Shown here: positions 14,972-59,948 of the stretch, in pieces | Numbering within the stretch: the first letter of the stretch is position 1 | Layout of the letters: each line of letters opens with the position of its first letter | Source: an uncultured Bacilli bacterium | Lineage (GTDB): Bacteria > Bacillota_I > Bacilli_A > RF39 > UBA660 | DNA length: 64,000 nucleotides | Direction: 5' to 3' | NCBI GenBank assembly: GCA_910589335.1 | Contig: CAJUTW010000001.1 | Span: 7,972-71,971, forward strand | The notes under the pieces: generated by a model | What the model saw: only the letters and a program-made list of their open reading frames with translations | Told to the model about the DNA's origin: nothing | Database searches by the model: none | Position numbers and translations under genes: made by a program

Positions 14972-15000
14972 TTGTAAAGTTATATTTTTTTTGGTATAAT
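14972..15000 (+). promoter_or_regulatory. Sigma-A-type promoter (TTGTAA-N17-TGgTATAAT) for the hybrid kinase gene
   Basis: Extended -10 consensus about 27 nt upstream of the start. Confidence 0.45.
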
Positions 15001-27353: not shown

Positions 27354-27411
27354 TTAGCATGTTGAATCTAGATATACCTAGAAAAAGCTAATTAAAACAG
27401 AGGTGATGAAA

Positions 27412-36478: not shown

Positions 36479-37288
36479 ATGGGTAATTTAACTACAGGTT
36501 TAAAAAAATTTATGCAAAATAAAAATACTGTAACAGTAGTTGGTGTAATATTAGCTATTATAGTTTTATATGTTGCATATACATGGAGGATTAATAAAGC
36601 TGTTAATCCTCAAGTAGTTCCTTATGCTGCAGAACAAATTAATGCAGGAACACAAATTACAGAAAGTATGATTGCTACTAGAGAAGTTCCACCATCAATG
36701 ATTTCTGGAGATGTTTTAATAAATAAAGGAGATATAATCGATAAATATGCTGCTGCTGATACTGTAATTCCAGAAGGAAGTTTATTTTACAGAAGATCAG
36801 TAGTAGAAAAAGAACAGTTACCAGCAAATATAATTTTGGATTATCCAAAGGGGCATGTTCTTTATAATCTTTCAGTTAGTACAGAAAGTACTTACGGAAA
36901 TTCTGTTTATCCAGGAAATTATATAGATATTTATTTAAAAGCAGTTAATAAAATAGATGAATCAAACCCTGCAGCTTTAACAGCAGATGCTGATAAAATT
37001 ATGTTAGGTAAACTTATGTCTAATATTAAAGTTTTAGCAGTAAAAGATTCAGATGGAAATCCGGTTTTCCAAAATATTGATGAAAATAGAAAACCAGCAA
37101 TGATAGTGTTTGCGGTTCCAGAAGAATATTATATTTTACTTAAAAAAGCAGAATATATGAGAACTTATGATACTTCATTAAATATAGTTCCTACTAATGA
37201 AAGTTTAAAAGATGAACCAGCTGATTTGGAAATTAGTAGTGATCAGTTAAAAGAATGGATTAATTTACATACAGTAATGGATCAATAA
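36479..37288 (+). CDS. cpaB: Flp/Tad pilus assembly protein CpaB/RcpC (SAF domain)
   Basis: N-terminal TM plus a SAF-like segment (ITESMIATREVPPSMISGDVLINKGDI). Confidence 0.65.
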   Translation: MGNLTTGLKKFMQNKNTVTVVGVILAIIVLYVAYTWRINKAVNPQVVPYAAEQINAGTQITESMIATREVPPSMISGDVLINKGDIIDKYAAADTVIPEGSLFYRRSVVEKEQLPANIILDYPKGHVLYNLSVSTESTYGNSVYPGNYIDIYLKAVNKIDESNPAALTADADKIMLGKLMSNIKVLAVKDSDGNPVFQNIDENRKPAMIVFAVPEEYYILLKKAEYMRTYDTSLNIVPTNESLKDEPADLEISSDQLKEWINLHTVMDQ

Positions 37289-37325: not shown

Positions 37326-38819
37326 ATGAATGGTAGTATTTTTGATAAATTAGATTTTGGACCTTTTCGTTCACTTTTGGATAATGATGATATTACAGAT
37401 ATATCCTATGATAATAATGGACAAATATGGATACGTTCACTAACTCAAGGATCTTTAAGAGTTGAGGTAGAAGGAGCTACTCCAGATTTTGTAGAAAAGT
37501 TAGCATTTCAATGTTCAAATGTTATGGGAACAACATTTAATAATGCTAAACCATTTCTAGATGCAGAAAGTGCTGAGTTACGTATGAACTTTGTACATGA
37601 GTCAATAGCTACAAATGGAATAGCCCTTGTAATTCGTAAAACTCCGGCCAAGATAAGACTTGAAAAAGAAAAGCTAATTGAAGAGGATTATTTTACACCA
37701 GCAATTCATGATTTTTTAATAAAGTGTGTTGAAGGGCATTGTAATATAATGGTTGCTGGTGAAACTGGTTCTGGTAAGACTGAGTTTGTTAAATATTTAG
37801 CTAGTCATACTAAGACTAACGAAAAAATTATTACTATAGAAGATACTTTGGAACTTCATTTAGATAAGATATTTCCTCAAAGAGATATTGTTGCTATGAA
37901 AACTAATAATGTAGCAAGTTATTCTGATGTTTTAGTTACTTGTATGCGTCAGAATCCTAAATGGATATTATTATCCGAAGTTCGTAGTGCTGAGGCGGTA
38001 TCTGCGGTACGTAACTCAATTTCTTCAGGACATAATATTTTATCTACAATTCATGCCGATAAAGCATCAGCTATTCCATATCGTTTATATTCTTTAATGG
38101 AAACTGATTTGGATGTTCATCAATTTCTTACAACAATTTATAGATATATTCAATTAGGAGTTCATATTAAAGCTTTCTACAGTAAAGAATATGGAAAGTT
38201 TCATCGTGAACTTGATGAAGTATCTGAATTTTATGTTGATGATAATAATGAACCTAAATCAAGAATTATTTATCAAAAGATTTTTGGAAAACCAATTATG
38301 TGTCGACCTAGTGATCATTTAATTGAATATCTTGAAAATCAGAATATAGATGTAAGTGAAATTATAAAAGATTTACCAAAGGATTTACCACTTGTTAAAG
38401 CTGAAGATGAGAATATTACTTCTGATAATAATAATGAGGATGGAGATTCTTCATCTAATTTAGTAGATGATAATAAAGCTGATAATACTAATGATGTTAT
38501 TCCTGATGCTGCTTCTAATCCTATTGTAGCTGATAATTCTTCAAATCAGTCAAATGAGGTAGTTGCTAATAATCAAAATACTGTTTCAACTGATACTCAA
38601 GTAGTTGAACAACCTGTAATTCAGGCAGTAGCACAACCAGAGGTGGTAGAAGTAGTTAATGAACAAAAGAGTATTCCACCTATGCAAGAGGGAACAAATA
38701 ACGTTCAGTTATCATCTATTCCAATTGTTCAATCAGTTATTCCGCAACAAGTAGTTGAACAGCCAATTAATCCAGTTTTAAATAATCAAATTTCAACAAT
38801 AGCAAAATTAGATGAATAG
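37326..38819 (+). CDS. tadA: Tad/Flp pilus ATPase CpaF/TadA (secretion NTPase superfamily) with a 130-aa low-complexity C-terminal extension
   Basis: Walker A GETGSGKT, Walker B/Asp box RQNPKWILLSEVR, His box GHNILSTIHA. Confidence 0.8.
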   Translation: MNGSIFDKLDFGPFRSLLDNDDITDISYDNNGQIWIRSLTQGSLRVEVEGATPDFVEKLAFQCSNVMGTTFNNAKPFLDAESAELRMNFVHESIATNGIALVIRKTPAKIRLEKEKLIEEDYFTPAIHDFLIKCVEGHCNIMVAGETGSGKTEFVKYLASHTKTNEKIITIEDTLELHLDKIFPQRDIVAMKTNNVASYSDVLVTCMRQNPKWILLSEVRSAEAVSAVRNSISSGHNILSTIHADKASAIPYRLYSLMETDLDVHQFLTTIYRYIQLGVHIKAFYSKEYGKFHRELDEVSEFYVDDNNEPKSRIIYQKIFGKPIMCRPSDHLIEYLENQNIDVSEIIKDLPKDLPLVKAEDENITSDNNNEDGDSSSNLVDDNKADNTNDVIPDAASNPIVADNSSNQSNEVVANNQNTVSTDTQVVEQPVIQAVAQPEVVEVVNEQKSIPPMQEGTNNVQLSSIPIVQSVIPQQVVEQPINPVLNNQISTIAKLDE

Positions 38820-38831
38820 GGAGGTGTTAAG

Positions 38832-39734
38832 ATGTATTTTACTGAATTATTAATAATAATAATTGTTGTAGTAGGTATATTTTTATACAGAAATTATAAA
38901 GGAGAAAATGTTGGAAAATATGTAATTAATCAAGTACAAACTGTTTATGATAAATTTGCTCCTTATTCATTTAAAGTTGTTAGAGAAAAAACTAAGCAGT
39001 TAGGACAGGAATATACTCCTAGACAATATGCCATTCAAATATCTTTGTTTGCTGGATTTGCAGCAGTTGTTACATATTTATATTTTTATAATTTAATAAT
39101 AAGTTTAATTTATGCAATTGCCGCTGTTTCTTTTGTTCCATACCTTACATATTTAAGATGTAAAAAAGTATATTCTGAATTTATATTCGAGCAAGTACAA
39201 GTTTATACTTCAAATACAATAATGGAATTTGCAACTACTCAATCTTTTGTTAAAGCATTAGAAGGTGTTAGAGATTCTGGTGTTTTAGAAGATCCAGTGT
39301 TAAGTGATGTTAATCAAATGATAAATATGAGTTATGATAATGGTACGATAGATGAAGCTTTAGAATATATGAGTAGATTATATCCTTATTATATAGTTAA
39401 GAATATGCATCAATTATTTTTACAGATTACTAAAGAAGGTGCACAAAATTCTGCTGATTCCCTAGAAAATATGCAATTAGATATTGATATGCTAGTAGAG
39501 AGTGTTTATCGTGATAGAATCGAGAGAGCTTCATTTCATAAGTCTTTTTTACAATTTGGTATTATGCTTTATTTAATGGTAATGCTTGTGCAATATTTGT
39601 TAGGTAGAGAAACTTATTTAGTTTTATTAGAGCGATGGTATATTCAAATTTTAATGCATGGTGTTTTAATTGTTAATACATATTTTCTCTTAAAAGGGGA
39701 AAAATACTATAATGAGAATGTAGGTGCTGAGTAA
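38832..39734 (+). CDS. tadB: TadB-like platform protein (T2SSF/GspF domain)
   Basis: TM - helical cytoplasmic domain - TM topology, directly after the ATPase gene. Confidence 0.65.
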   Translation: MYFTELLIIIIVVVGIFLYRNYKGENVGKYVINQVQTVYDKFAPYSFKVVREKTKQLGQEYTPRQYAIQISLFAGFAAVVTYLYFYNLIISLIYAIAAVSFVPYLTYLRCKKVYSEFIFEQVQVYTSNTIMEFATTQSFVKALEGVRDSGVLEDPVLSDVNQMINMSYDNGTIDEALEYMSRLYPYYIVKNMHQLFLQITKEGAQNSADSLENMQLDIDMLVESVYRDRIERASFHKSFLQFGIMLYLMVMLVQYLLGRETYLVLLERWYIQILMHGVLIVNTYFLLKGEKYYNENVGAE

Positions 39735-40537
39735 TGGAGATATTAGTAGTAGGTGCAGTTATAATGTTTATCTTAATTTATAATAATACTATAGATAAAG
39801 ATAAATTTTTTGCTGATAATCAAAAATACTTAGAGGCCTTTAAAGAAGATGACTATCAGTTTTTAGTATATGCTAAATATGGTGAAGATGTGGATATAGA
39901 TCAATTATATTCTAAACGAGTAACCAATGCCTTTATTGTATTTCTTGTAATATTAGCGCTTACAATTACTGGTGGTGATTCGGCGGAAATAATTAATTCT
40001 CAATTTTTTCTTAATTTAGTTTTATCTACCGTAATTGCTGTTTTAGTTTTTAAAATGCCTTATATGGAATTAAAAAGATATTATAAGTTACATCTTCATG
40101 AAATAGATGTAATGTTACCATACTATCTAAAAAGTTTAGAGATTTTAATTCAACATTATACTGTTCCAGTTGCAATTGGTAAATCAATAGGAGATGCTCC
40201 TGATATATTTAGACCTGGACTTAGAAGAATGATTGATAGGATAAATTCTGGAGATGCTTCAGTTGATCCATATATGGAATTTGCTAATACATATCCTGTT
40301 AGGGATTCTATGCGTATGATGAGACTTTTGTATCGTTTAGGAATAGGGTCACAAGAGAAAAAACAAGAAAGATTGATGATGTTTTCTAAGACAGTATCAA
40401 GCTTACAGAATAAGGCAAGAGAAACTAAATATAAGGAAAGACTTTCACATATGGAAAGTCAAACAATGGTTATGCTTGTTGTAACTGGTATTGGAGTTAT
40501 GCTTGTAATTTTAATTTCAATGATGATGATGTTTTAA
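39734..40537 (+). CDS. tadC: TadC-like platform protein (T2SSF/GspF domain)
   Basis: Same TM - cytoplasmic domain - TM topology, paired with the TadB-like gene. Start overlaps the upstream stop. Confidence 0.65.
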   Translation: MEILVVGAVIMFILIYNNTIDKDKFFADNQKYLEAFKEDDYQFLVYAKYGEDVDIDQLYSKRVTNAFIVFLVILALTITGGDSAEIINSQFFLNLVLSTVIAVLVFKMPYMELKRYYKLHLHEIDVMLPYYLKSLEILIQHYTVPVAIGKSIGDAPDIFRPGLRRMIDRINSGDASVDPYMEFANTYPVRDSMRMMRLLYRLGIGSQEKKQERLMMFSKTVSSLQNKARETKYKERLSHMESQTMVMLVVTGIGVMLVILISMMMMF

Positions 40538-40547
40538 TTAAAATATG

Positions 40548-40576
40548 TTGTTAAAAATAATTAGATTTGTTATAAT
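40548..40576 (+). promoter_or_regulatory. Strong sigma-A-type promoter (TTGTTA-N17-TGtTATAAT) for the small pilin-like ORF
   Basis: Consensus extended -10, 33 nt upstream of ATG 40610. Confidence 0.55.
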
Positions 40577-40609
40577 TAATTTGTAAAAATAAGAAAGGAT
40601 GGGATAATA

Positions 40610-40759
40610 ATGAAAGCAGCTACAGGAGAATTAAATTTAACAGTAATTACTTTACTTGCTATTGCGGCAGTAATTGCATTTTTCTGGGCAATGTGGCCAA
40701 GTATTTCTGAAACAATTAATGGACAATGGACAAATATAAGTACATATGGAGCTAAATAG
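40610..40759 (+). CDS. Small (49 aa) Flp-type pilin candidate (absent from the ORF track)
   Basis: MKAATG/ELNLTVITLLAIAAVIAFFWAMW: short charged leader, Gly, then a hydrophobic helix. RBS AAGGATGG with an 8-nt spacer. Own consensus promoter. Position between tadC and tadE is typical of flp. Confidence 0.5.
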   Translation: MKAATGELNLTVITLLAIAAVIAFFWAMWPSISETINGQWTNISTYGAK

Positions 40760-40771
40760 GGGTGTTATTAG

Positions 40772-41215
40772 ATGAGAGATGGATTTGGAGGTATTTTAAA
40801 TATAGTTTTTATTGTAATATTTTTACTTATTGTAGAAGGTGTTTTAGGTTTAGTTGTTAATTATACTAAAGCTTTTAAGATGAAAAACAATGTTATTTCA
40901 ATGATAGAACAATATGAAGCTGCAGGTTGTTTTGAAAACTCAGGAAATAGTGCATGTGTTAAAAGAATAATTGATAAAGCTAAAGAAATAGGATACTCTC
41001 CTACCTCTCTTAACTGTCCTAGTGGGTATGATTCAGTTTACGATTTATTTTGTTATAGAGGGGAAATTGTAAAAAATACTGATAATTATACAAGTTCAAA
41101 ACCAACTGTATATAAAGTTGTAACTCAGGTAGATTTAAATTTACCACTTATAAGTAATATTTTAGGATTTAGTATTTTTCAGGTATCAGGAGACACTGAA
41201 GTTGTTGAGTCTTAA
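40772..41215 (+). CDS. TadE-like pseudopilin (paralog 1)
   Basis: MRDGFGGILNIVFIVIFLLIVEGVL TM plus NYTKAFKMKN, the TadE-like N-terminal domain pattern. Tandem paralog. Confidence 0.6.
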   Translation: MRDGFGGILNIVFIVIFLLIVEGVLGLVVNYTKAFKMKNNVISMIEQYEAAGCFENSGNSACVKRIIDKAKEIGYSPTSLNCPSGYDSVYDLFCYRGEIVKNTDNYTSSKPTVYKVVTQVDLNLPLISNILGFSIFQVSGDTEVVES

Positions 41216-41233: not shown

Positions 41234-41677
41234 GTGCGTGATGCTTTGGGAGGAACAGTAGTTATTACAATAATTGTTATTTTTATAGTTTTTGTTTCAG
41301 CTTATTTAGCATTTAATGTTAATTATACTAAGGCTTTTAAGATGAAGAATAAAATTATTTCGACTTATGAGGAGTATAATGGTAAATGTGAAACTGATTG
41401 TAAAACAAAAATAAAAGAATATGCTGAAAGTATTGGTTATAAACCTAATCTTAATTGTGGTAGTTATGATGAAGACAGTAATGGATTATATTGTTATAAA
41501 TTAATGGAAGTTAAAAAGAATGCTTGTGATGAAGGATCTAAAAAATATTATAAAATTCAAACAAAAATTGATATAAGAGTTCCAATTGTTGATAGTATTT
41601 TAGGATTACAAGTTTTTGCTATAAGTGGAGATACAAAAGTATTTGAAGATAAATTTTCTTCTGGAAATTGCAAATAG
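41234..41677 (+). CDS. TadE-like pseudopilin (paralog 2)
   Basis: MRDALGGTVVITIIVIFIVFVSAYL plus NYTKAFKMKN. GTG start after AAGGTGA. Confidence 0.6.
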   Translation: MRDALGGTVVITIIVIFIVFVSAYLAFNVNYTKAFKMKNKIISTYEEYNGKCETDCKTKIKEYAESIGYKPNLNCGSYDEDSNGLYCYKLMEVKKNACDEGSKKYYKIQTKIDIRVPIVDSILGLQVFAISGDTKVFEDKFSSGNCK

Positions 41678-41707: not shown

Positions 41708-42718
41708 ATGAATGTTATTGTAGCTAATACACAACAAAATGAGTTATCTAATTTAGATATTGATATTATAAAAAGTATTTCTGGTGTGTATGAGGCAGCA
41801 GAAATCGTTGAAATGTTTAAAAGTTTTTTTTATAGTAAGATGATTTTAGATGTTACTGCTATTAAACATTATAATGATTTAAAGACTTATGAGTTATTAA
41901 TTCAAGGTTTGGATCCTGAAAAAATAATTTTTTTATTACCTGAAGGAAGTGAACTATGTACTTCAAATTTTTTATCACATCTTATATCAATTGGTATTTA
42001 TAATTTTACAACTAATTTAAATGGTATAAAATTTTTATTAAAAAAGCCTAATACATTAAAAGATGTAGAACATATTAGAAAAATGGCTGGAATGGAAAAC
42101 TCTACAGAAACAGGAGCAAGTGTTGCTACTGTTACTACAAAAGTAGAAAGTGGAACAACTGTCATTGGTGTTAGAAATGTGACAGAACATGCTGGAGCTA
42201 CAACTTTCATATATATGTTAAAAAAAGAGTTAGCAATTGTTTATGGACAAGATAATGTAATTGCTATTGAAATTGATAAAAATGATTTTCAATTATTTAA
42301 TGATAAACATATGGTTTCTTGTAAACAGAGTGAAATTAAAAATATGTTTCAAAAATATAGTAATGCAACAATTATTTTAGTAGATCTTAATGGAAATGTA
42401 GAAGATGCATTCTGTGGAGAAGTTTTATATTTAGTAGAGCCTAGTACTTTAAGACTTAATAAAGTAGTTAGAAGAAATCGAAATTGTTTTAGTAAATTAG
42501 TTGGTAAAAAAGTTATTTTGAATCAAAGCTTACTTTTAAATAATGATGTTTTTGATTTTGAGAGTGAAGCAGGTATTAAAGTTTTTTATAATTTGCCGCC
42601 ACTTGATGAGCGAAAAAGAAATGCTATAATAAATGATTTTTTAACTAAATTAGGTTTATTTAATAAGAGTGTAAAAAACAATTCAGGAAATAAGATATTT
42701 GGATTGTTTAGACGCTAA
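41708..42718 (+). CDS. TadZ/CpaE-like pilus localisation protein with a degenerate nucleotide-binding motif
   Basis: N-terminal receiver-like region. ParA/MinD-like segment VIGVRNVTEHAGATTFIYMLKKELA lacks the canonical GK[ST]. Confidence 0.4.
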   Translation: MNVIVANTQQNELSNLDIDIIKSISGVYEAAEIVEMFKSFFYSKMILDVTAIKHYNDLKTYELLIQGLDPEKIIFLLPEGSELCTSNFLSHLISIGIYNFTTNLNGIKFLLKKPNTLKDVEHIRKMAGMENSTETGASVATVTTKVESGTTVIGVRNVTEHAGATTFIYMLKKELAIVYGQDNVIAIEIDKNDFQLFNDKHMVSCKQSEIKNMFQKYSNATIILVDLNGNVEDAFCGEVLYLVEPSTLRLNKVVRRNRNCFSKLVGKKVILNQSLLLNNDVFDFESEAGIKVFYNLPPLDERKRNAIINDFLTKLGLFNKSVKNNSGNKIFGLFRR

Positions 42719-42722
42719 TAAT

Positions 42723-42751
42723 TTGACAAATAATGATATATAGTGTATTAT
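42723..42751 (+). promoter_or_regulatory. Strong sigma-A-type promoter (TTGACA-N17-TATTAT)
   Basis: Consensus -35, 17-nt spacer, TG-adjacent -10, upstream of ORF 42776. Confidence 0.55.
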
Positions 42752-42775: not shown

Positions 42776-43114
42776 ATGTTAGATTTAGTACAAATTGGAA
42801 CAGATGCGTGTGGAGGATTATTACCTTTAGTAAAAGTAATATATGCAGCAATCAAGTTAGTTATGGTTATAATTCCTATTGCTTTAATTATATATGGAAC
42901 AATAGATTTAGGAAAAGCAGTTATTGCAAGTGATGAAAAAGAAGTTAAATCTGCTCAAAGTAGACTAATTAAACGTATGATTTACGCAGCTCTTATATTC
43001 TTTATTCCAATGTTAGTTGGTGTAGTTATGAATATCGTATCTGCTGGTGAACAAGGAGATACTGAAAGCTGGAATAATTGTTGGCAAGCTGTAACTGGTG
43101 GAGATAGTGAATAG
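42776..43114 (+). CDS. Small Cys-flanked two-TM membrane protein (VirB2/TrbC-like topology), family member 1
   Basis: TDACGG ... TM ... FFIP ... TM ... NCWQAV. Homologous to the N-terminus of the ORF 21918 NlpC/P60 protein and to the ORF 43188 C-terminus. Confidence 0.55.
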   Translation: MLDLVQIGTDACGGLLPLVKVIYAAIKLVMVIIPIALIIYGTIDLGKAVIASDEKEVKSAQSRLIKRMIYAALIFFIPMLVGVVMNIVSAGEQGDTESWNNCWQAVTGGDSE

Positions 43115-43163
43115 TAATAGTAATTATTGCTATTTTTTTTTTATTTTGATATACTTATTATGT

Positions 43164-43172
43164 TATAATGTA
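43164..43172 (+). promoter_or_regulatory. Extended -10 element (TGtTATAAT) after a hairpin/T10 terminator-like sequence at 43115-43160
   Basis: tgttataat precedes the GGAG RBS and ATG 43188. Confidence 0.35.
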
Positions 43173-43187
43173 TGCGGAGTGTGTTTT

Positions 43188-43715
43188 ATGCGAAAAAGAA
43201 TATTAGTATTATTAGTATTAATTATGTCGTTTATGTTAATTATTCCAATAGAAGCTGATGCTCTTCCTAGTAGAGAAATTAATAATAATGAGTTATCTGA
43301 AAATGTTTTTATGTTAACTAAAATAGATAATATGAAGAAGAAAAAGAAAAAAACAGAACCAATAACTGATATTGATGATGTTGATGATTTATTGGATGAT
43401 TATGATCAAGAACAGGATTGTAATGGGTCTAATTCTATCTTTGGAGATCCTGAAGATGAGGATTCTGTAGCATGGCTTTTACAACAGGCTTTAAATTATA
43501 TTAAAGTTATTGGACCAATTTTAGTTGTAATTTTAAGTAGTATAGATTTTGTTTATGTAATAGTTAAGAGTGATGATGAGGCAATGAAAAAAGCTACAAA
43601 GAAATTAACTTATAGAATTATTTTAGCTCTTCTTTTATTCTTTATTCCTACATTAGTTCAAGTAGCATTAGATTTATTTGGAATGGCAACTGATCCTACT
43701 TGTGGTTTACATTAA
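43188..43715 (+). CDS. Secreted-leader two-TM membrane protein (VirB2/TrbC-like topology), family member 2
   Basis: Signal peptide MRKRILVLLVLIMSFMLIIPIEADA, an acidic region, then QDCNG ... TM ... LLFFIPTLV ... TM ... PTCG. Confidence 0.55.
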   Translation: MRKRILVLLVLIMSFMLIIPIEADALPSREINNNELSENVFMLTKIDNMKKKKKKTEPITDIDDVDDLLDDYDQEQDCNGSNSIFGDPEDEDSVAWLLQQALNYIKVIGPILVVILSSIDFVYVIVKSDDEAMKKATKKLTYRIILALLLFFIPTLVQVALDLFGMATDPTCGLH

Positions 43716-55405: not shown

Positions 55406-55687
55406 ATGAATATTGATATTAATAGTATTCTTAAAATGAATTCTTCAAATATAATAGATATTAGAGATAGAAATAGTTATGTAATGGGACATATTCCACA
55501 AGCTATAAATATTGAAGAGTATGATTTATTATTTAATACAAATAAATACTTAAATAAAAATTCTATTTATTATATATATTGTGATTTAGGAAATAGAAGT
55601 GGTCAATTAGCAATGAAACTTAGAAAAGATGGTTATAATGTTATCAATATAGAAGGTGGTTATCATAATTACTTGTTAAGAAAATAG
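55406..55687 (+). CDS. Rhodanese-domain protein
   Basis: Active-site loop YIYCDLGNRSG. Confidence 0.65.
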   Translation: MNIDINSILKMNSSNIIDIRDRNSYVMGHIPQAINIEEYDLLFNTNKYLNKNSIYYIYCDLGNRSGQLAMKLRKDGYNVINIEGGYHNYLLRK

Positions 55688-55721
55688 ATTTATAATATAA
55701 TAGTTATGAAGGTGATAATAA

Positions 55722-56300
55722 TTGGAAATAATTAATTATATTATTGATTATAGTACTAAATTTATAGCTACTGGTGGAATACCTTTTGGATTTTTGTTAG
55801 TTTTTATAGAATGTTTTATTCCAGCATTACCATTAAGTATTTTTGTTGCTTTAAATGTTAATGCATTTGGAGTGTTTATTGGAACTCTAATTTCATGGAT
55901 TGCTACTTGTTTAGGAAGTTTCTTATGTTATTTATTATTTTCTTTTTTAGAAGAGAAATTTATTAGTAAATGGTTTAATAATAAAACTAAAAAACTTATT
56001 ACAAAAGGAACATTAAAATTTAAAACAATTGGTTTTTCTGAATTAGTATTAATAATAACATTACCTTTTACTCCATCTTTTTTAGTTAATATTTTATCAG
56101 GGATAGCTGGAGTATCAAAAGAAAAATTTATTTCAGCTTTATTAATAGGTAAAGTATTTACAATAATTTTTTGGGGGTATATTGGAAAAAGTTTTATTGA
56201 AAGTATTACAGATATAAGTTCTATTTTTTATATAATTATAGCTTTAATAATTTCATATATTTTATCTAAAATTGTTAGTCGAAAAATGAATATTGAATAA
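55722..56300 (+). CDS. DedA/TVP38-family membrane protein
   Basis: Polytopic membrane protein with a DedA-like pattern. TTG start. Confidence 0.5.
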   Translation: MEIINYIIDYSTKFIATGGIPFGFLLVFIECFIPALPLSIFVALNVNAFGVFIGTLISWIATCLGSFLCYLLFSFLEEKFISKWFNNKTKKLITKGTLKFKTIGFSELVLIITLPFTPSFLVNILSGIAGVSKEKFISALLIGKVFTIIFWGYIGKSFIESITDISSIFYIIIALIISYILSKIVSRKMNIE

Positions 56301-56315
56301 AAAGGAGAAAATTAT

Positions 56316-57383
56316 ATGGATTATGTTATTATTTTATTGCTTATTGTTTTAATTATTTTAGTAGTTATTTCATTATTTAAAAATATAAATGAATCAAATA
56401 TTACAGAAAGACTTGGTAAGCTTGAACTAGAAGTTATGCGTGAGATTGGAAACTTTAAATCTGATTTAAGTAGAAATATGAATGAAGATTTTTCTAAATT
56501 TAATGAAAGTGTTGAAAAGAGACTTCTTATGATTAATGAGAAAGTTAATGAAAGACTTGATCAAAATTTTGAAAAAACTAATAAAACTTTTATGAATGTT
56601 ATAGAAAGACTTTCAAAAATTGATGAGGCACAGAAAAAGATTGAAACTTTGTCAGGAGATATTGTTAGTTTACAAAGTATTTTAACAGATAAGAAGACAA
56701 GAGGAATATTTGGAGAAGTTAATTTAAAACATATTTTAACAAGTGTTTTTGGTGAAAAGAATGATAAAATCTATAAAATTCAATATACTTTATCTACTGG
56801 TGTAATTGCAGATAGTGTTTTATTTGCTCCTGAACCATTAGGAACTATTTGTATTGATTCAAAATTTCCACTTGAAAATTATCAATTAATGGTTGATAGA
56901 AAATTGTCAGAAGAAACGCGAAAAAGTTATTTAAAAAATTTTAGAATTGATATGAAAAAACATATTGATGCTATTAGTAATAAATATATAATTCCGGGAG
57001 AAACTACAGATCAAGCTATATTATTTTTACCTGCAGAAGCTATTTTTGCTGAACTTAATGCTTATCACTCTGATATTATAAATTATGCTTATAAAAAAAG
57101 AGTATGGATTACTAGTCCAACCACGCTTATATCTACTTTAACAGTAATTGAGATGATTATAAAAAATTTAGAAAGAGATAAATATAGTTCAATTATACAT
57201 GAAGAGCTAAACAAACTAGGTCTTGAATTTGCAAGATATAAAGAACGTTGGGATAAATTAGCAAGAAGTATTCAAACAGTTAATAAAGATGTTGAAAATG
57301 TATCTATAACTGCAGATAAGATTTCTAAGAAATTTCAAACTATTAATAAAGTTGAACTTATAGAAAATGATGAAAGAACTTAA
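56316..57383 (+). CDS. rmuC: DNA recombination protein RmuC
   Basis: N-terminal TM, long coiled coil, C-terminal RmuC nuclease-like region. Confidence 0.65.
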   Translation: MDYVIILLLIVLIILVVISLFKNINESNITERLGKLELEVMREIGNFKSDLSRNMNEDFSKFNESVEKRLLMINEKVNERLDQNFEKTNKTFMNVIERLSKIDEAQKKIETLSGDIVSLQSILTDKKTRGIFGEVNLKHILTSVFGEKNDKIYKIQYTLSTGVIADSVLFAPEPLGTICIDSKFPLENYQLMVDRKLSEETRKSYLKNFRIDMKKHIDAISNKYIIPGETTDQAILFLPAEAIFAELNAYHSDIINYAYKKRVWITSPTTLISTLTVIEMIIKNLERDKYSSIIHEELNKLGLEFARYKERWDKLARSIQTVNKDVENVSITADKISKKFQTINKVELIENDERT

Positions 57384-58252: not shown

Positions 58253-58316
58253 ATTAAGTCTTTTTAATTTAGTATAAAATACTTATTTTTGTTTAAAATA
58301 ATTTTAGGTGATAAAT

Positions 58317-59060
58317 ATGCCAAATGTACATAGTGCAATATCTTTTGGTCTTGTAAATATTCCTATAATTATGAATCCTTTAATTAAAAATAATGATACT
58401 TCTTTTAATCAATTACATGAAAAATGTTTAAATAGAGTTAGATATATAAAATTTTGTGATCATTGTAAAAAGAATTTAAAAGAAGCAGATATTATAAAAG
58501 GCTATGAATATGAGAAAGATCATTATTTAACTTTTCAAAAAGCTGAATTAGATAAATTAAAACCTGAAAATGAAAAAGAAATTGAAATAGTATCTTTTAT
58601 AAATATAAATGAAATTGATCCAGTTTATTTTGAGAAAAGTTATATTTTAGAGACAGAAAAAGGAAATAAAGCTTATAATCTTTTTTTAGAAGCTTTAAAA
58701 AAGACAAAAAAAGTTGCTTTAGCAAAAACGGTTATTGGAAGTAAATTTTATTATTGTATTTTAAGATTTACTAATTTTGGAATAATTATGACTACTTTAT
58801 TTTTTTATGAAGAGGTTAATCTTGATGATTTGAATAAAAGTGTAAAAGTAAATTCTAAGGAATTGGATTTAGCAATTAGAATAATTGAGGAGAGAAGTGG
58901 GAAGTTTGAACCAGAAAAATATAAGGATGAATATCAGGATAATATTAAACAAGCTATAGAAGATAAACTAAATGGTAAAGCAATAAAGAAAGGTAAAAAG
59001 AAACAAAAGCAACAAGTATCTGATTTATTAGAAGCGCTTGAGAAGAGTTTAAAAAAATAG
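58317..59060 (+). CDS. ku: Ku protein (non-homologous end joining)
   Basis: N-terminal SAISFGLVNIPI Ku core motif. Lys-rich C-terminal tail. ATG 58317 after AGGTGA. Confidence 0.85.
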   Translation: MPNVHSAISFGLVNIPIIMNPLIKNNDTSFNQLHEKCLNRVRYIKFCDHCKKNLKEADIIKGYEYEKDHYLTFQKAELDKLKPENEKEIEIVSFININEIDPVYFEKSYILETEKGNKAYNLFLEALKKTKKVALAKTVIGSKFYYCILRFTNFGIIMTTLFFYEEVNLDDLNKSVKVNSKELDLAIRIIEERSGKFEPEKYKDEYQDNIKQAIEDKLNGKAIKKGKKKQKQQVSDLLEALEKSLKK

Positions 59061-59948
59061 ATGGATTTATTTGAAAATAGGGATTTTAGTCCTATGTTGT
59101 TGTCAGAAGAAAAAGATGCTTTTGATTCAAAAGAGTTTATATTTGAATTAAAATTTGATGGAACTAGGGCTTTAATTTTTGTGTCTCAAAAGAACTTAGT
59201 TATTATGAATAGACATGGAAAGAATATTACATATTTATATCCTGAATTACAAGAGATAAAAAATTATATAAAAGAAAAAGTTATATTTGATGGAGAAATA
59301 GTTGTTTTTAAAGAAGGAAAACCTTCTTTTTTGAAATTGCAGGAGAGAGCACATTTAAAAAATAAATTAAAGATTAATTATCAAAGTAAAAATAATCCAG
59401 TAATATTTGTTTGTTTTGATATTTTATATAAAAATAAAAATCTTATAAATAACACATTATTAGAAAGAAAAAAAATATTATCTAAGTTCATAGATAATGA
59501 TTATTTTTTAAAGAATAAGTATATTGAAAATGATGGAAAATTATTATTTAAAAATATTAAAAAATTAGGTCTTGAAGGTATTGTTGCTAAAAGAAAAAAT
59601 AGTAAATATCAAATTAATAAAAGAACTGATGATTGGATTAAAATAAAAAATTTATTAAAAGAGTCTTTTTATGTTGGTGGATATATAGAAACAAAAAAAA
59701 GTATATCTTTGCTTTTAGGAGAGATGAAAAATAATAAACTATTTTATGTTGGTAGAGTAGTAATATCAACTAAAGAATCTTTATATAAAAGTATTAAAAG
59801 TAGTAAGATAATTAATAAGACAAATTTTGAGAAAGATATTGTGGGAGCTAATTATATAATTCCTAAATTTAAATGTTTTGTGGAATATATGGAAAGAACT
59901 AAAACTAATCATTTAAGACAACCTGTTTTTAGAGGAGAAGATAAGTGA
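59061..59948 (+). CDS. ligD: ATP-dependent DNA ligase (LigD ligase domain only)
   Basis: Adenylation motif I ELKFDGTRAL. 295 aa, with no polymerase or phosphoesterase domain. Confidence 0.75.
   Translation: MDLFENRDFSPMLLSEEKDAFDSKEFIFELKFDGTRALIFVSQKNLVIMNRHGKNITYLYPELQEIKNYIKEKVIFDGEIVVFKEGKPSFLKLQERAHLKNKLKINYQSKNNPVIFVCFDILYKNKNLINNTLLERKKILSKFIDNDYFLKNKYIENDGKLLFKNIKKLGLEGIVAKRKNSKYQINKRTDDWIKIKNLLKESFYVGGYIETKKSISLLLGEMKNNKLFYVGRVVISTKESLYKSIKSSKIINKTNFEKDIVGANYIIPKFKCFVEYMERTKTNHLRQPVFRGEDK

Follow-up and report, generated by a model that had tools for sequence, protein, structure and literature searches.

A conserved 49-codon gene encodes a candidate pilin-like subunit within a type IV secretion cluster of uncultured gut Bacilli

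Which protein, if any, could form a surface fibre in a Gram-positive-type T4SS cluster that also carries a T2SSE-family ATPase? The window, the whole 64-kb stretch of DNA analysed here, contains such a cluster, and a short ORF (ORF49) lies within it directly after the ATPase gene and two genes for polytopic membrane proteins (Table 1). ORF49 runs from the ATG at 40610 to the TAG at 40759, and its product is MKAATGELNLTVITLLAIAAVIAFFWAMWPSISETINGQWTNISTYGAK. An earlier note had described it as an unlisted pilin-like ORF with its own promoter, placed between tadC and tadE, and had judged it the likeliest fibre subunit of the entire machine. It is unlisted only in a six-frame track with a length cut-off. 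Homologues were called many times in earlier gene-caller output and labelled hypothetical proteins; annotation pipelines scarcely notice this 49-codon gene.

Table 1. Coordinates of ORF49, its expression signals and the neighbouring genes in the window.
Feature	Coordinates	Strand	Evidence or remark
DUF5411 protein, N-terminal membrane helix	35963..36463	+	Pfam E 3.9e-43; syntenic in all relatives examined
CpaB/RcpC-like protein (SAF and RcpC domains)	36479..37288	+	Pfam SAF 1.7e-6, RcpC 9e-6 (just below cut-off)
T2SSE-family secretion ATPase (CpaF/TadA/VirB11/FlaI superfamily)	37326..38819	+	Pfam T2SSE PF00437 3e-27
300-aa polytopic membrane protein, candidate platform protein	38832..39734	+	'tadB' position; no family match
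267-aa polytopic membrane protein, candidate platform protein	39734..40537	+	'tadC' of the earlier note; no family match
Sigma-70/SigA-type promoter, extended -10	40548..40576	+	Same architecture in 81/81 distinct orthologous loci
Shine-Dalgarno site AAAGGATGGG	40594..40603	+	About 10 nt before ATG 40610
ORF49, candidate pilin-like subunit	40610..40759	+	49 aa; conserved homologues, pN/pS
147-aa protein (MRDGFGG and hydrophobic helix), candidate minor-pilin-like partner	40772..41215	+	'tadE' of the earlier note
147-aa paralogue (-RDALGG and hydrophobic helix)	41234..41677	+	GTG start; 42% identical to first copy
336-aa cytoplasmic protein, deviant P-loop-like GVRNVTEHAGATT	41708..42718	+	TadZ/CpaE-like position; putative role
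VirB2-like T4SS_pilin protein, 112 aa, rival candidate fibre subunit	42776..43114	+	PF18895 E 3e-4; promoter-like site 42723
Second T4SS_pilin-domain protein	43098..43715	+	PF18895 5.9e-6; promoter pattern match 43127

ORF49 is a real gene under strong purifying selection. Its homologues, which are 48–69 aa long, form 821 clusters at 90% identity, and a search with the family profile yields 536 clusters at 50% identity. Uncultured gut Bacilli from human, ruminant, rabbit and mouse hosts have a homologue of equal size at the corresponding place, in 186 species-level genomes. The reading frame is unbroken in all 85 copies examined, and the gene keeps its fixed place inside the machine operon at every locus examined. 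Variation is 0.27 at third codon positions versus 0.07–0.11 at positions 1 and 2; pN/pS is 0.25 overall, and in codons 1–14 a pN of 0.01 stands against a pS of 0.45. Rfam has no match at this stretch.

The product consists of a short polar N-terminus (MKAATGE), a single hydrophobic helix and a 20-aa polar tail. The hydrophobic core spans approximately residues 8–29 and follows a polar stretch of 7–9 residues, which agrees with the helix and short leader first described. The N-terminus is near-invariant in the family (M-K-x-A-x-G-E-L-N-x-T-x-x-T) and is followed by one hydrophobic helix; M1, K2, A4, G6, E7, L8, T11, T14 and A17 are each at least 90% conserved in 127 diverse members. Conservation is centred on the membrane helix and not on the exported part. 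The C-terminus varies in sequence and length (46 to 101 aa), and the longer forms are Cys-rich. A distant relative carries tandem duplicates of the small gene.

The promoter proposed directly upstream of ORF49 is present, with a -35 element TTGTTA (40548–40553), a 17-nt spacer, the TG dinucleotide at 40568–40569 and a -10 element TATAAT (40571–40576). Within the window alone this consensus match says little, because 94 promoter-like matches occur across 33–48 kb where shuffled sequences give an expectation of 98.6. The promoter becomes convincing because it is conserved across loci: each of the 81 distinct loci has a TTGnnn-N17-TGnTATAAT-like sequence 30–55 nt 5´ of the ATG, while the flanking intergenic bases vary, and elsewhere the pattern arises by chance at a rate of only about 0.005–0.02 per 110 nt. 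The ribosome-binding site is conserved too, with an AAGGA-type site 8–15 nt 5´ of the ATG in 80 of the 81 loci. A conserved strong promoter together with such a site fits an abundant structural subunit.

Two qualifications apply to the promoter. The next gene begins 13 nt past the ORF49 stop codon and no terminator-like site is present there, so transcription of the downstream genes probably starts from this promoter as well; it is conserved and lies directly before ORF49, yet it is probably not ORF49's own in the exclusive sense. It is also not literally the best in the region, as the earlier note had it, since a promoter-like site at 42723 scores 11/12. Nor is it unique, because similar conserved promoters precede both downstream VirB2-like genes; within 6 kb on either side of ORF49, such promoters occur only before these three genes. 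In relatives, a conserved promoter is found at the relative position of the 112-aa VirB2-like gene, and the promoter of the second T4SS_pilin gene is kept at the same offset in 38 of 79 loci. An ATG near 43188, downstream of the promoter match at 43127, is probably where this second gene truly starts. The two PF18895 genes have their own conserved promoters and are as good candidates for the fibre subunit as ORF49; the claim that ORF49 is the likeliest one for the entire machine goes too far.

The genes upstream of ORF49 resemble parts of a type-IV-filament machine to different degrees. The ATPase matches the NCBIfam VirB11, TadA-type and FlaI models alike, at about 96–112 bits and below the cut-off of each. 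The CpaB-like protein scores 38.8 bits (6e-10) against TIGR03177 (pilus_cpaB), below the curated cut-off of 71, and its hhalign comparison with CpaB is non-significant. Neither polytopic membrane protein has a match in Pfam, NCBIfam or PDB sequence searches, hhalign gives probabilities of 0.1–2% against T2SSF, and their comparison with four bona fide TadB/TadC sequences is non-significant. By HMM comparison the 300-aa protein is weakly linked to pLS20 gene 38 and to a homologue in Peribacillus (E about 1e-4), and its counterpart on a C. perfringens plasmid aligns with T2SSF at E 0.01 over profile positions 10–119 of 125. For the 267-aa protein, hhalign gives a probability of 92.5% for pLS20 gene 39-type proteins versus 2% for T2SSF. 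Its AF2 model, built from a 37-sequence alignment of 85–92% identity, is of low confidence (pLDDT 59); Foldseek finds nothing significant with it (E of at least 1.9), and PilC and TcpE are among the weak matches.

Downstream, the first 147-aa protein has a conserved N-terminal motif, M-[KR]-[DE]-A-[FY]-G-G, and the signature M-[KR]-x-x-x-G is common to both 147-aa proteins and ORF49. In hhalign, the N-terminus of the first 147-aa protein aligns to that of the ORF49 family with E 0.0016 and a probability of 16%. The AF2 model of the first copy (pLDDT 82.7) contains a 45-residue helix (residues 3–47), a second helix (residues 61–73) and a β-sheet of four strands. The agreement with TadE/TadF is one of general architecture only, namely a long N-terminal helix and a sheet. 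No Pfam family matches the 147-aa protein, TadE/TadF (PF07811) included; profile searches of the family find no PDB relative, and no pilin is among the Foldseek matches of the confident model. The labels tadC and tadE given earlier to the two genes that flank ORF49 are therefore not borne out by the Pfam, NCBIfam, hhalign and Foldseek results. The 336-aa protein that follows has no Pfam match either, and its hhalign comparison with TadZ is non-significant (E 0.05).

Direct comparison of ORF49 with pilin families gives a largely negative picture. Flp_Fap and VirB2/TrbC, the families named for comparison in the earlier note, yield no match, and neither does T4SS_pilin. The ORF49 protein does not match Flp_Fap (PF04964) at E up to 0.1, and when the 127 family members are searched at E up to 1, 106 families turn up and Flp_Fap is absent from the 25 commonest. 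Pfam and NCBIfam searches with ORF49 return no type IV pilin/N-methylation, Pilin_N, TrbC/VirB2 or T4SS_pilin match. The N-terminus reads MKAATG-ELNLTV, which places Glu at +1, directly after the Gly, and Thr at +5 relative to Gly6; the protein has no E-Y pair and carries neither the Flp motif G|x-x-x-x-E-Y nor the type IV motif G|[FMLIV]-x-x-x-E (canonical G|F-x-x-x-E). The commonest weak Pfam match in the family is Pilin_N (archaeal type IV, PF07790), found in 23 of the 127 members at E 0.004–1 (best E 0.0038). All of them fall short of the curated cut-off of 25.2 bits: in the two members examined in detail, the matches begin at Gly6 and score 16.9–17.5 bits. The window protein itself has none. 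A PDB search with the family profile finds no solved pilin. No Peptidase_A24 prepilin peptidase is detected by Pfam among the scanned ORFs of the 64-kb window, the GxGD[x][KR] motif is absent from every window ORF of at least 100 aa, and no prepilin peptidase is annotated in the 20-kb related loci. A chimeric sequence (P0298), in which a Flp-type leader (…KGQTLVEY…) is joined to an ORF49-family helix and tail, was set aside as a direct link to Flp; it is given no weight because it comes from a single 729-bp contig with 0.59x coverage and no context.

The family nevertheless has the pattern of type IV pilins, with a constant N-terminus, a variable C-terminus and an N-terminal signature common to its neighbours. 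It is plausible that ORF49 is pilin-like by architecture and context while standing outside every known pilin family. What supports the earlier pilin-like reading is the architecture, the shared N-terminal motif, and the T2SSE ATPase and CpaB-like gene upstream; pilin family matches for ORF49 and, in the window, a prepilin peptidase are lacking.

We favour, with the balance about even, the reading that ORF49 is the small, abundant building block of a type-IV-filament-like (Tad/Com/archaeal-pilus-like) module within a Gram-positive-type T4SS cluster of low-GC gut Bacilli. The protein would enter the membrane via its helix, and a prepilin-type peptidase with its gene elsewhere may cut it after Gly6. 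Together, the ATPase and both membrane proteins would then pull it out of the membrane and polymerise it, and the 147-aa proteins would prime or cap the filament. The product would be a short fibre or piston through the cell wall, which could help the adjoining VirB4/VirB6/VirD4 channel to reach the partner cell or DNA; the internal promoter would provide the excess of subunits that such a fibre needs. A further and more tentative proposal is that ORF49 represents a pilin family not recognised before, whose minimal N-terminus is non-canonical and class-III-like and which may need no dedicated peptidase. Its fibre would belong to a hybrid machine, a single-membrane T4SS of which a type-IV-filament module (ATPase, platform, CpaB-like and minor subunits) is an integral and co-transcribed component. 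The cluster looks chromosomal in these reduced-genome gut Bacilli. A megablast search of 36–44 kb against plasmids gives no match, and the cluster shows neither a relaxase nor an integrase. Given its apparently chromosomal location and the missing relaxase, it may function in the uptake of DNA, the exchange of chromosomal DNA or the attachment of cells to one another, as opposed to plasmid conjugation.

It is possible, if doubtful, that ORF49 is instead a single-pass membrane subunit of the T4SS/ATPase complex, for instance a factor for assembly, a stator-like piece or an accessory of the channel, which is abundant and conserved and does not polymerise. The single hydrophobic helix and the lack of a pilin family match agree with this, as does the lack of a prepilin peptidase in the window. 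The best PDB match of the family profile, which is non-significant, is the membrane anchor helix of ATP synthase subunit b, and plasmids of the pLS20 type have a differently built 47–60-aa single-helix protein, annotated as unknown, near the same ATPase. However, a non-polymerising accessory does not obviously need a dedicated strong promoter kept at all 81 loci. Fibre subunits exposed at the surface typically combine a constant N-terminus, a hypervariable Cys-rich C-terminus and tandem duplication, the pattern seen here, and the N-terminal motif common to the two larger neighbours also speaks for the filament subunit.

Very unlikely is a peptide exported to act on other cells (bacteriocin-like, signalling or holin-like) and not part of the machine. 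The short, hydrophobic product, the Cys-rich tails of some relatives and the CPBP/Rce1-type protease genes near some related clusters would suit such a role; against it stand the fixed place of the gene in the machine operon, the conservation centred on the membrane helix, the absence of a double-glycine leader of usual length, and the absence of an adjacent dedicated transporter or immunity gene. That ORF49 is the VirB2/TrbC-type conjugative pilin of the T4SS itself is highly improbable. It is small, hydrophobic and encoded within a T4SS cluster, but VirB2-type pilins have two membrane helices whereas ORF49 has one hydrophobic segment, PF04956 and PF18895 match none of the 127 family members even at E up to 1, and 2 kb downstream the cluster has two genuine PF18895 genes. 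An untranslated leader, a chance ORF or an Rfam RNA, which the shortness of the ORF and the frequency of promoter-like matches in an AT-rich genome might suggest, is refuted by the comparative data on codon positions, selection and frame given above and can practically be dismissed.

A literature search on DUF5411, on pili or secretion in RF39, and on Gram-positive conjugation with Tad or VirB11 returned no description of the ORF49 module. In the window cluster and in related ones, a T2SSE ATPase occurs together with a micro-protein that is conserved and strongly promoted, and with larger partners that match it. A filament, if built, would add a new pilin family and offer a handle on cell contact and DNA exchange in widespread uncultured gut Bacilli. 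There is also a practical warning, in that a 49-codon gene without a Pfam model may be among the key structural genes of a 26-kb machine.

The Tad machine consists of Flp, TadA/CpaF, TadB, TadC, CpaB/RcpC, TadE, TadF and TadZ. The ORF49 module resembles it in the very small subunit (about 43–49 aa) with one hydrophobic helix, in the gene order (a secretion ATPase, then two polytopic membrane proteins that look like paralogues), and in the presence of a CpaB/RcpC-like gene. Two larger proteins carry the ORF49 N-terminal signature as TadE/TadF carry that of Flp, and relatives have tandem copies of the subunit gene. In contrast to Flp, ORF49 has no Flp_Fap match and no G|xxxxEY motif, and its polar N-terminus has only 6–7 residues with Glu after the Gly. 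No TadV/CpaA peptidase is found in the 64-kb window; a secretin is absent from the cluster, which is expected for a single-membrane cell. The platform and TadE-like proteins have no detectable homology to their Tad counterparts, and the module forms part of a T4SS operon. Archaeal type IV pilins and class III signal-peptide proteins likewise have a short polar leader and a hydrophobic helix and do not require Glu at +5, whereas ORF49 lacks the charged residue at -2 next to the Gly.

A functional parallel for a T4SS accompanied by a type-IV-filament machine is found in IncI (R64) and TP114, where a type IV pilus beside a separate conjugative T4SS promotes contact (PMC12857230, PMC9045228). In that case the pili are canonical type IVb structures made by double-membrane bacteria; their PilS/PilV pilins and PilU peptidase are recognisable, and their genes form a separate cluster.

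Recent reviews state that VirB11 homologs are universally absent from Gram-positive T4SSs, which use adhesins and not pili, and note as the sole exception the pLS20 family with an unexplained VirB11-like gene (PMC12857230, PMC12102498, PMC8557374). The hybrid-machine reading, if true, would contradict the textbook view that Gram-positive T4SSs lack VirB11-type ATPases and pili. Genes 36–41 of pLS20 encode the VirB11-like ATPase, two membrane proteins, a 120-aa protein and a 47-aa protein, and all are labelled 'unknown' (PMC8557374). The pLS20 family differs from the window cluster in several respects: it has no CpaB-like or DUF5411 genes, it resides on a plasmid with a relaxase, and its small protein (47–60 aa, MLDQN-DR-WW-IGAV...) has another N-terminus without the Gly6 motif. 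The two share the order of an ATPase, two membrane proteins and tandem small single-helix proteins, followed by VirB2-like, VirB6, VirB4 and VirD4 genes; the ATPases are 32–35% identical, and the second membrane protein is homologous according to the hhalign result described above. If the ORF49 module builds a filament, this would explain the orphan ATPase module of pLS20/pXO-type plasmids.

ORF49, a 49-aa candidate pilin-like gene, lies between a 267-aa membrane-protein gene, which stops at 40537, and a 147-aa gene. Its product is composed of a short polar N-terminus, a single hydrophobic segment in the hydropathy scan (approximately residues 8–29), and a 20-residue polar tail. A search of 5.8 billion proteins yielded 821 clusters of homologues; the best 120 of the 821 are 47–76 aa long with 73–98% identity, and all are unnamed or hypothetical, with no Pfam domain. 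When 1.84 billion representatives were searched exhaustively with a profile, 536 clusters came up at E ≤1e-3 and 113 at E ≤1e-10. The gene is present in 186 species-level genomes (one genome scanned per species) from the gut of human, ruminant, rabbit and mouse, which are labelled as Bacilli bacterium, uncultured Tenericutes/Mollicutes, Mycoplasma sp. CAG:877, Erysipelotrichaceae and Candidatus Faecimonas. The last is placed by NCBI as Bacilli incertae sedis, and we take these names to be equivalent to the RF39-like small-genome gut Bacilli group. Among 79 distinct DNA versions, the variation is 0.27 at third codon positions versus 0.11 at first and 0.07 at second positions, with a pN/pS of 0.25 (pS 0.45 and pN 0.01 over codons 1–14), which indicates that ORF49 is a real gene. 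Together with the lack of any Rfam match at ORF49, these values exclude, so far as sequence can, the untranslated leader raised as an alternative in the earlier note.

Because the window has a G+C content of ~25%, promoter-like matches are as common in it as in shuffled sequence (94 observed versus 98.6 expected). The match ahead of ORF49 is by itself no proof; comparison across genomes supplies it. The pattern TTGnnn-N17-TGnTA(T/A)A(A/C)T is located 30–55 nt 5´ of the ORF49-family ATG in 81/81 distinct loci, against a background of ~0.02 per 110 nt in related loci, while the adjacent columns interchange A and T freely. The Shine-Dalgarno site is kept in 80/81 loci. The consensus promoter and good RBS described in the earlier note are thus borne out; its rank as the best promoter in the region does not stand, since the site at 42723 scores higher on the two hexamers. 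In the 64-kb window the pattern occurs six times, in every case on the + strand, which suggests that it is quite specific for real promoters here. The sole other strict TTGnnn-N17-TGnTATAAT match of the window is at 14972, in the gap before a hybrid histidine-kinase gene (15027).

Within ±6 kb of the ORF49 gene in 79 loci, the pattern recurs at three places only: before ORF49 (79 loci) and before each of the two VirB2-like (T4SS_pilin, PF18895) genes 2.0–2.7 kb downstream, where extended −10 promoters lie 2.0–2.75 kb past ORF49 in 47/79 and 38/79 loci. Only these three small pilin-like genes therefore have conserved internal promoters, as expected for subunits needed in excess, and each of the three products is a candidate for the fibre subunit. 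The 205-aa ORF at 43098 probably starts at an ATG near 43188, just past the 43127 promoter match, which gives a signal-peptide-like start (MRKRILVLL…). The gene following ORF49 starts 13 nt past its stop (within ~35 nt in most relatives) and no terminator-like site was found after ORF49, so its promoter probably drives the downstream genes too.

Pfam and NCBIfam scans of the window ORFs revealed a single long + strand operon (~28.9 to 55.3 kb), which is a Gram-positive-type T4SS with an additional ATPase module.

Features of ORF49 and its cluster (window positions; single numbers are gene positions)
Feature	Position	Strand	Remark
Two proteins (299, 517 aa)	27937, 28913	+	no family match
Ig-like surface protein	30475	+	
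Sortase-like protein	32290	+	
950-aa protein	33089	+	
DUF5411 protein	35963	+	
SAF/RcpC (CpaB-like) protein	36479	+	
T2SSE-family ATPase	37326	+	
Two polytopic membrane proteins	38832, 39734	+	
ORF49 promoter-like site	40548–40576	+	TTGTTA 40548–40553, 17-nt spacer, TG, TATAAT 40571–40576
ORF49 Shine-Dalgarno site	40594–40603	+	AAAGGATGGG
ORF49	40610–40759	+	ATG start; product MKAATGELNLTVITLLAIAAVIAFFWAMWPSISETINGQWTNISTYGAK
Two 147-aa paralogues	40772, 41234	+	
336-aa protein	41708–42718	+	
Promoter sites of VirB2-like genes	42723–42751, 43127–43155	+	extended −10
Two T4SS_pilin (PF18895) proteins	42776, 43098	+	
TrbL/VirB6-like protein	43726	+	
Two small proteins	45915, 46153	+	no family match in the window
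VirB4-like ATPase	46755	+	
SpoIID-type wall hydrolase	48575	+	
262-aa protein	50923	+	no family match
VirD4 coupling protein	51768	+	
DUF6273 protein	54135	+	

In relatives, the counterpart of the 46153 protein matches TraC-like (PF26593). The gene order is kept in close relatives and also in a more distant one, where the ORF49-type gene is tandemly duplicated (94 and 82 aa, Cys-rich tails), again 3´ of a 150-nt gap. Two or three tandem copies occur in the relatives L093 (10001–10552), L090 (838–1353), L007 (9917–10449) and L008 (6335–6911), and the longer forms carry Cys-rich tails. In MT835474.1, a faecal scaffold with the unverified label ‘Bacteriophage sp.’, a different tandem small-helix pair lies directly 5´ of a related ATPase. 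Housekeeping genes border the cluster (27400–56300) on either side (greA at 27403; rhodanese, DedA/VTT and rmuC at 55406–57383), and Pfam detected neither a relaxase nor an integrase in it. Given the 186 genomes with the small gene, the cluster looks chromosomal and lineage-wide rather than a plasmid or ICE, and it resembles the T4SSs similarly reported in Patescibacteria (PMC12102498). A few kb 3´, Ku and an ATP-dependent DNA ligase form a non-homologous end-joining pair (58308–59948). The GC skew is strongly positive over 2–60 kb and negative over 60–62 kb, and gene orientation also switches there; the switch at ~60000 could be a replication origin, a terminus or a local inversion boundary.

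Across 127 diverse ORF49-family members, conservation reaches 90% or more at M1, K2, A4, G6, E7, L8, T11, T14 and A17, whereas the part past the helix varies (total length 46–101 residues, often with paired cysteines), a pattern that reads as that of type IV pilins. The short N-terminus with Gly6 ahead of a hydrophobic helix, a feature shared with the 147-aa proteins, is reminiscent of prepilin leaders of six residues (MKAQKG|F in Pseudomonas PilA). The commonest weak Pfam match is archaeal type IV Pilin_N (23/127 members, best E 0.0038), which starts at Gly6. The 147-aa proteins share the N-terminal motif. It reads MRDGFGG and -RDALGG in the window and, over the set of relatives, M-[KR]-[DE]-A-[FY]-G-G and M-x-[DE]-x-x-G-[GS]; the distant locus has MREAIGG and MREVIGG beside the small gene's MKEATGE. 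hhalign aligns MKeATGE-LNmTVITI with MkDAFGGILNiv-Iav at E 0.0016, with a probability of 16% owing to the short aligned stretch. The nearly invariant E-L-N-[LM]-T at E7–T11 (40628–40642) fits the bacterial N-glycosylation sequon D/E-x-N-x-S/T, and there is a further N-[IL]-S close to the C-terminus; the fit may be coincidental. In P0298 (L089, 123–317), a classic Flp-type leader (MRLKLNNKGQTLVEY…) is fused to an ORF49-family helix and tail. Its source is a lone low-coverage 729-bp metagenome contig: either recombination in nature has linked the two pilin types here, or the assembly is chimeric.

The neighbours' names in the earlier note, ‘tadC’ (267 aa) and ‘tadE’ (147 aa), are not demonstrable. 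For the 267-aa protein, hhalign shows homology to pLS20 gene 39-type proteins (92.5%), whereas three weak results tie it to T2SSF platform proteins: an hhalign match of 2% over the cytoplasmic domain, Foldseek hits of its low-confidence model to PilC and TcpE that are not significant, and a full-length T2SSF match at E 0.01 of the counterpart that the other membrane protein has in C. perfringens. The confident 147-aa model (pLDDT 82.7) combines an N-terminal helix of 45 residues with another helix and a sheet of four strands, and matches no solved pilin. The CpaB-like assignment (E 6e-10, under the curated cut-off) is better than the platform one. The ATPase clearly belongs to the T2SSE family, as a candidate member of its TadA, VirB11 or FlaI branch. 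The cytoplasmic 336-aa protein stands at the TadZ/CpaE position of Tad loci and contains a P-loop-like motif in degenerate form (GVRNVTEHAGATT); hhalign with TadZ aligns exactly this motif, at only E 0.05.

Against a pilin, no ORF49-family member reaches a curated pilin threshold, and the window protein has no match at all. Canonical pilin motifs are absent due to the Glu directly after the Gly, the family profile has no solved relative, and no prepilin peptidase was found in the window or the 20-kb related loci. We give roughly even chances to ORF49 encoding the subunit, made in abundance, of a type-IV-filament-like module that works with the T4SS. The main rival, which we hold less probable, is that ORF49 is a small membrane subunit of this machine that does not polymerise. 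As a filament subunit, we infer, the product would insert into the membrane through its helix, and a peptidase whose gene lies elsewhere may cleave it behind Gly6. Polymerisation by the ATPase and the two membrane proteins, with the 147-aa proteins as priming or capping subunits, would then yield a fibre or piston that passes through the wall and cooperates with the adjoining T4SS channel.

No paper describing this module or family was found in the literature. The ATPase's nearest plasmid relatives (32–35% identity) are on pLS20-type Bacillus, pXO-type and a C. perfringens plasmid. Like the window, these carry the ATPase, then two membrane proteins, and later VirB2-like genes; between them lie a 120-aa protein and tandem 47–60-aa single-helix proteins. 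All of these skeleton genes are ‘unknown’ in the pLS20 family paper, which states that Gram-positive conjugative elements make no pili (PMC8557374). By the membership tests the ORF49 protein is no Flp, classical type IV or VirB2 pilin and, judged by threshold, no archaeal one either; in anatomy and context it nevertheless works like a pilin.
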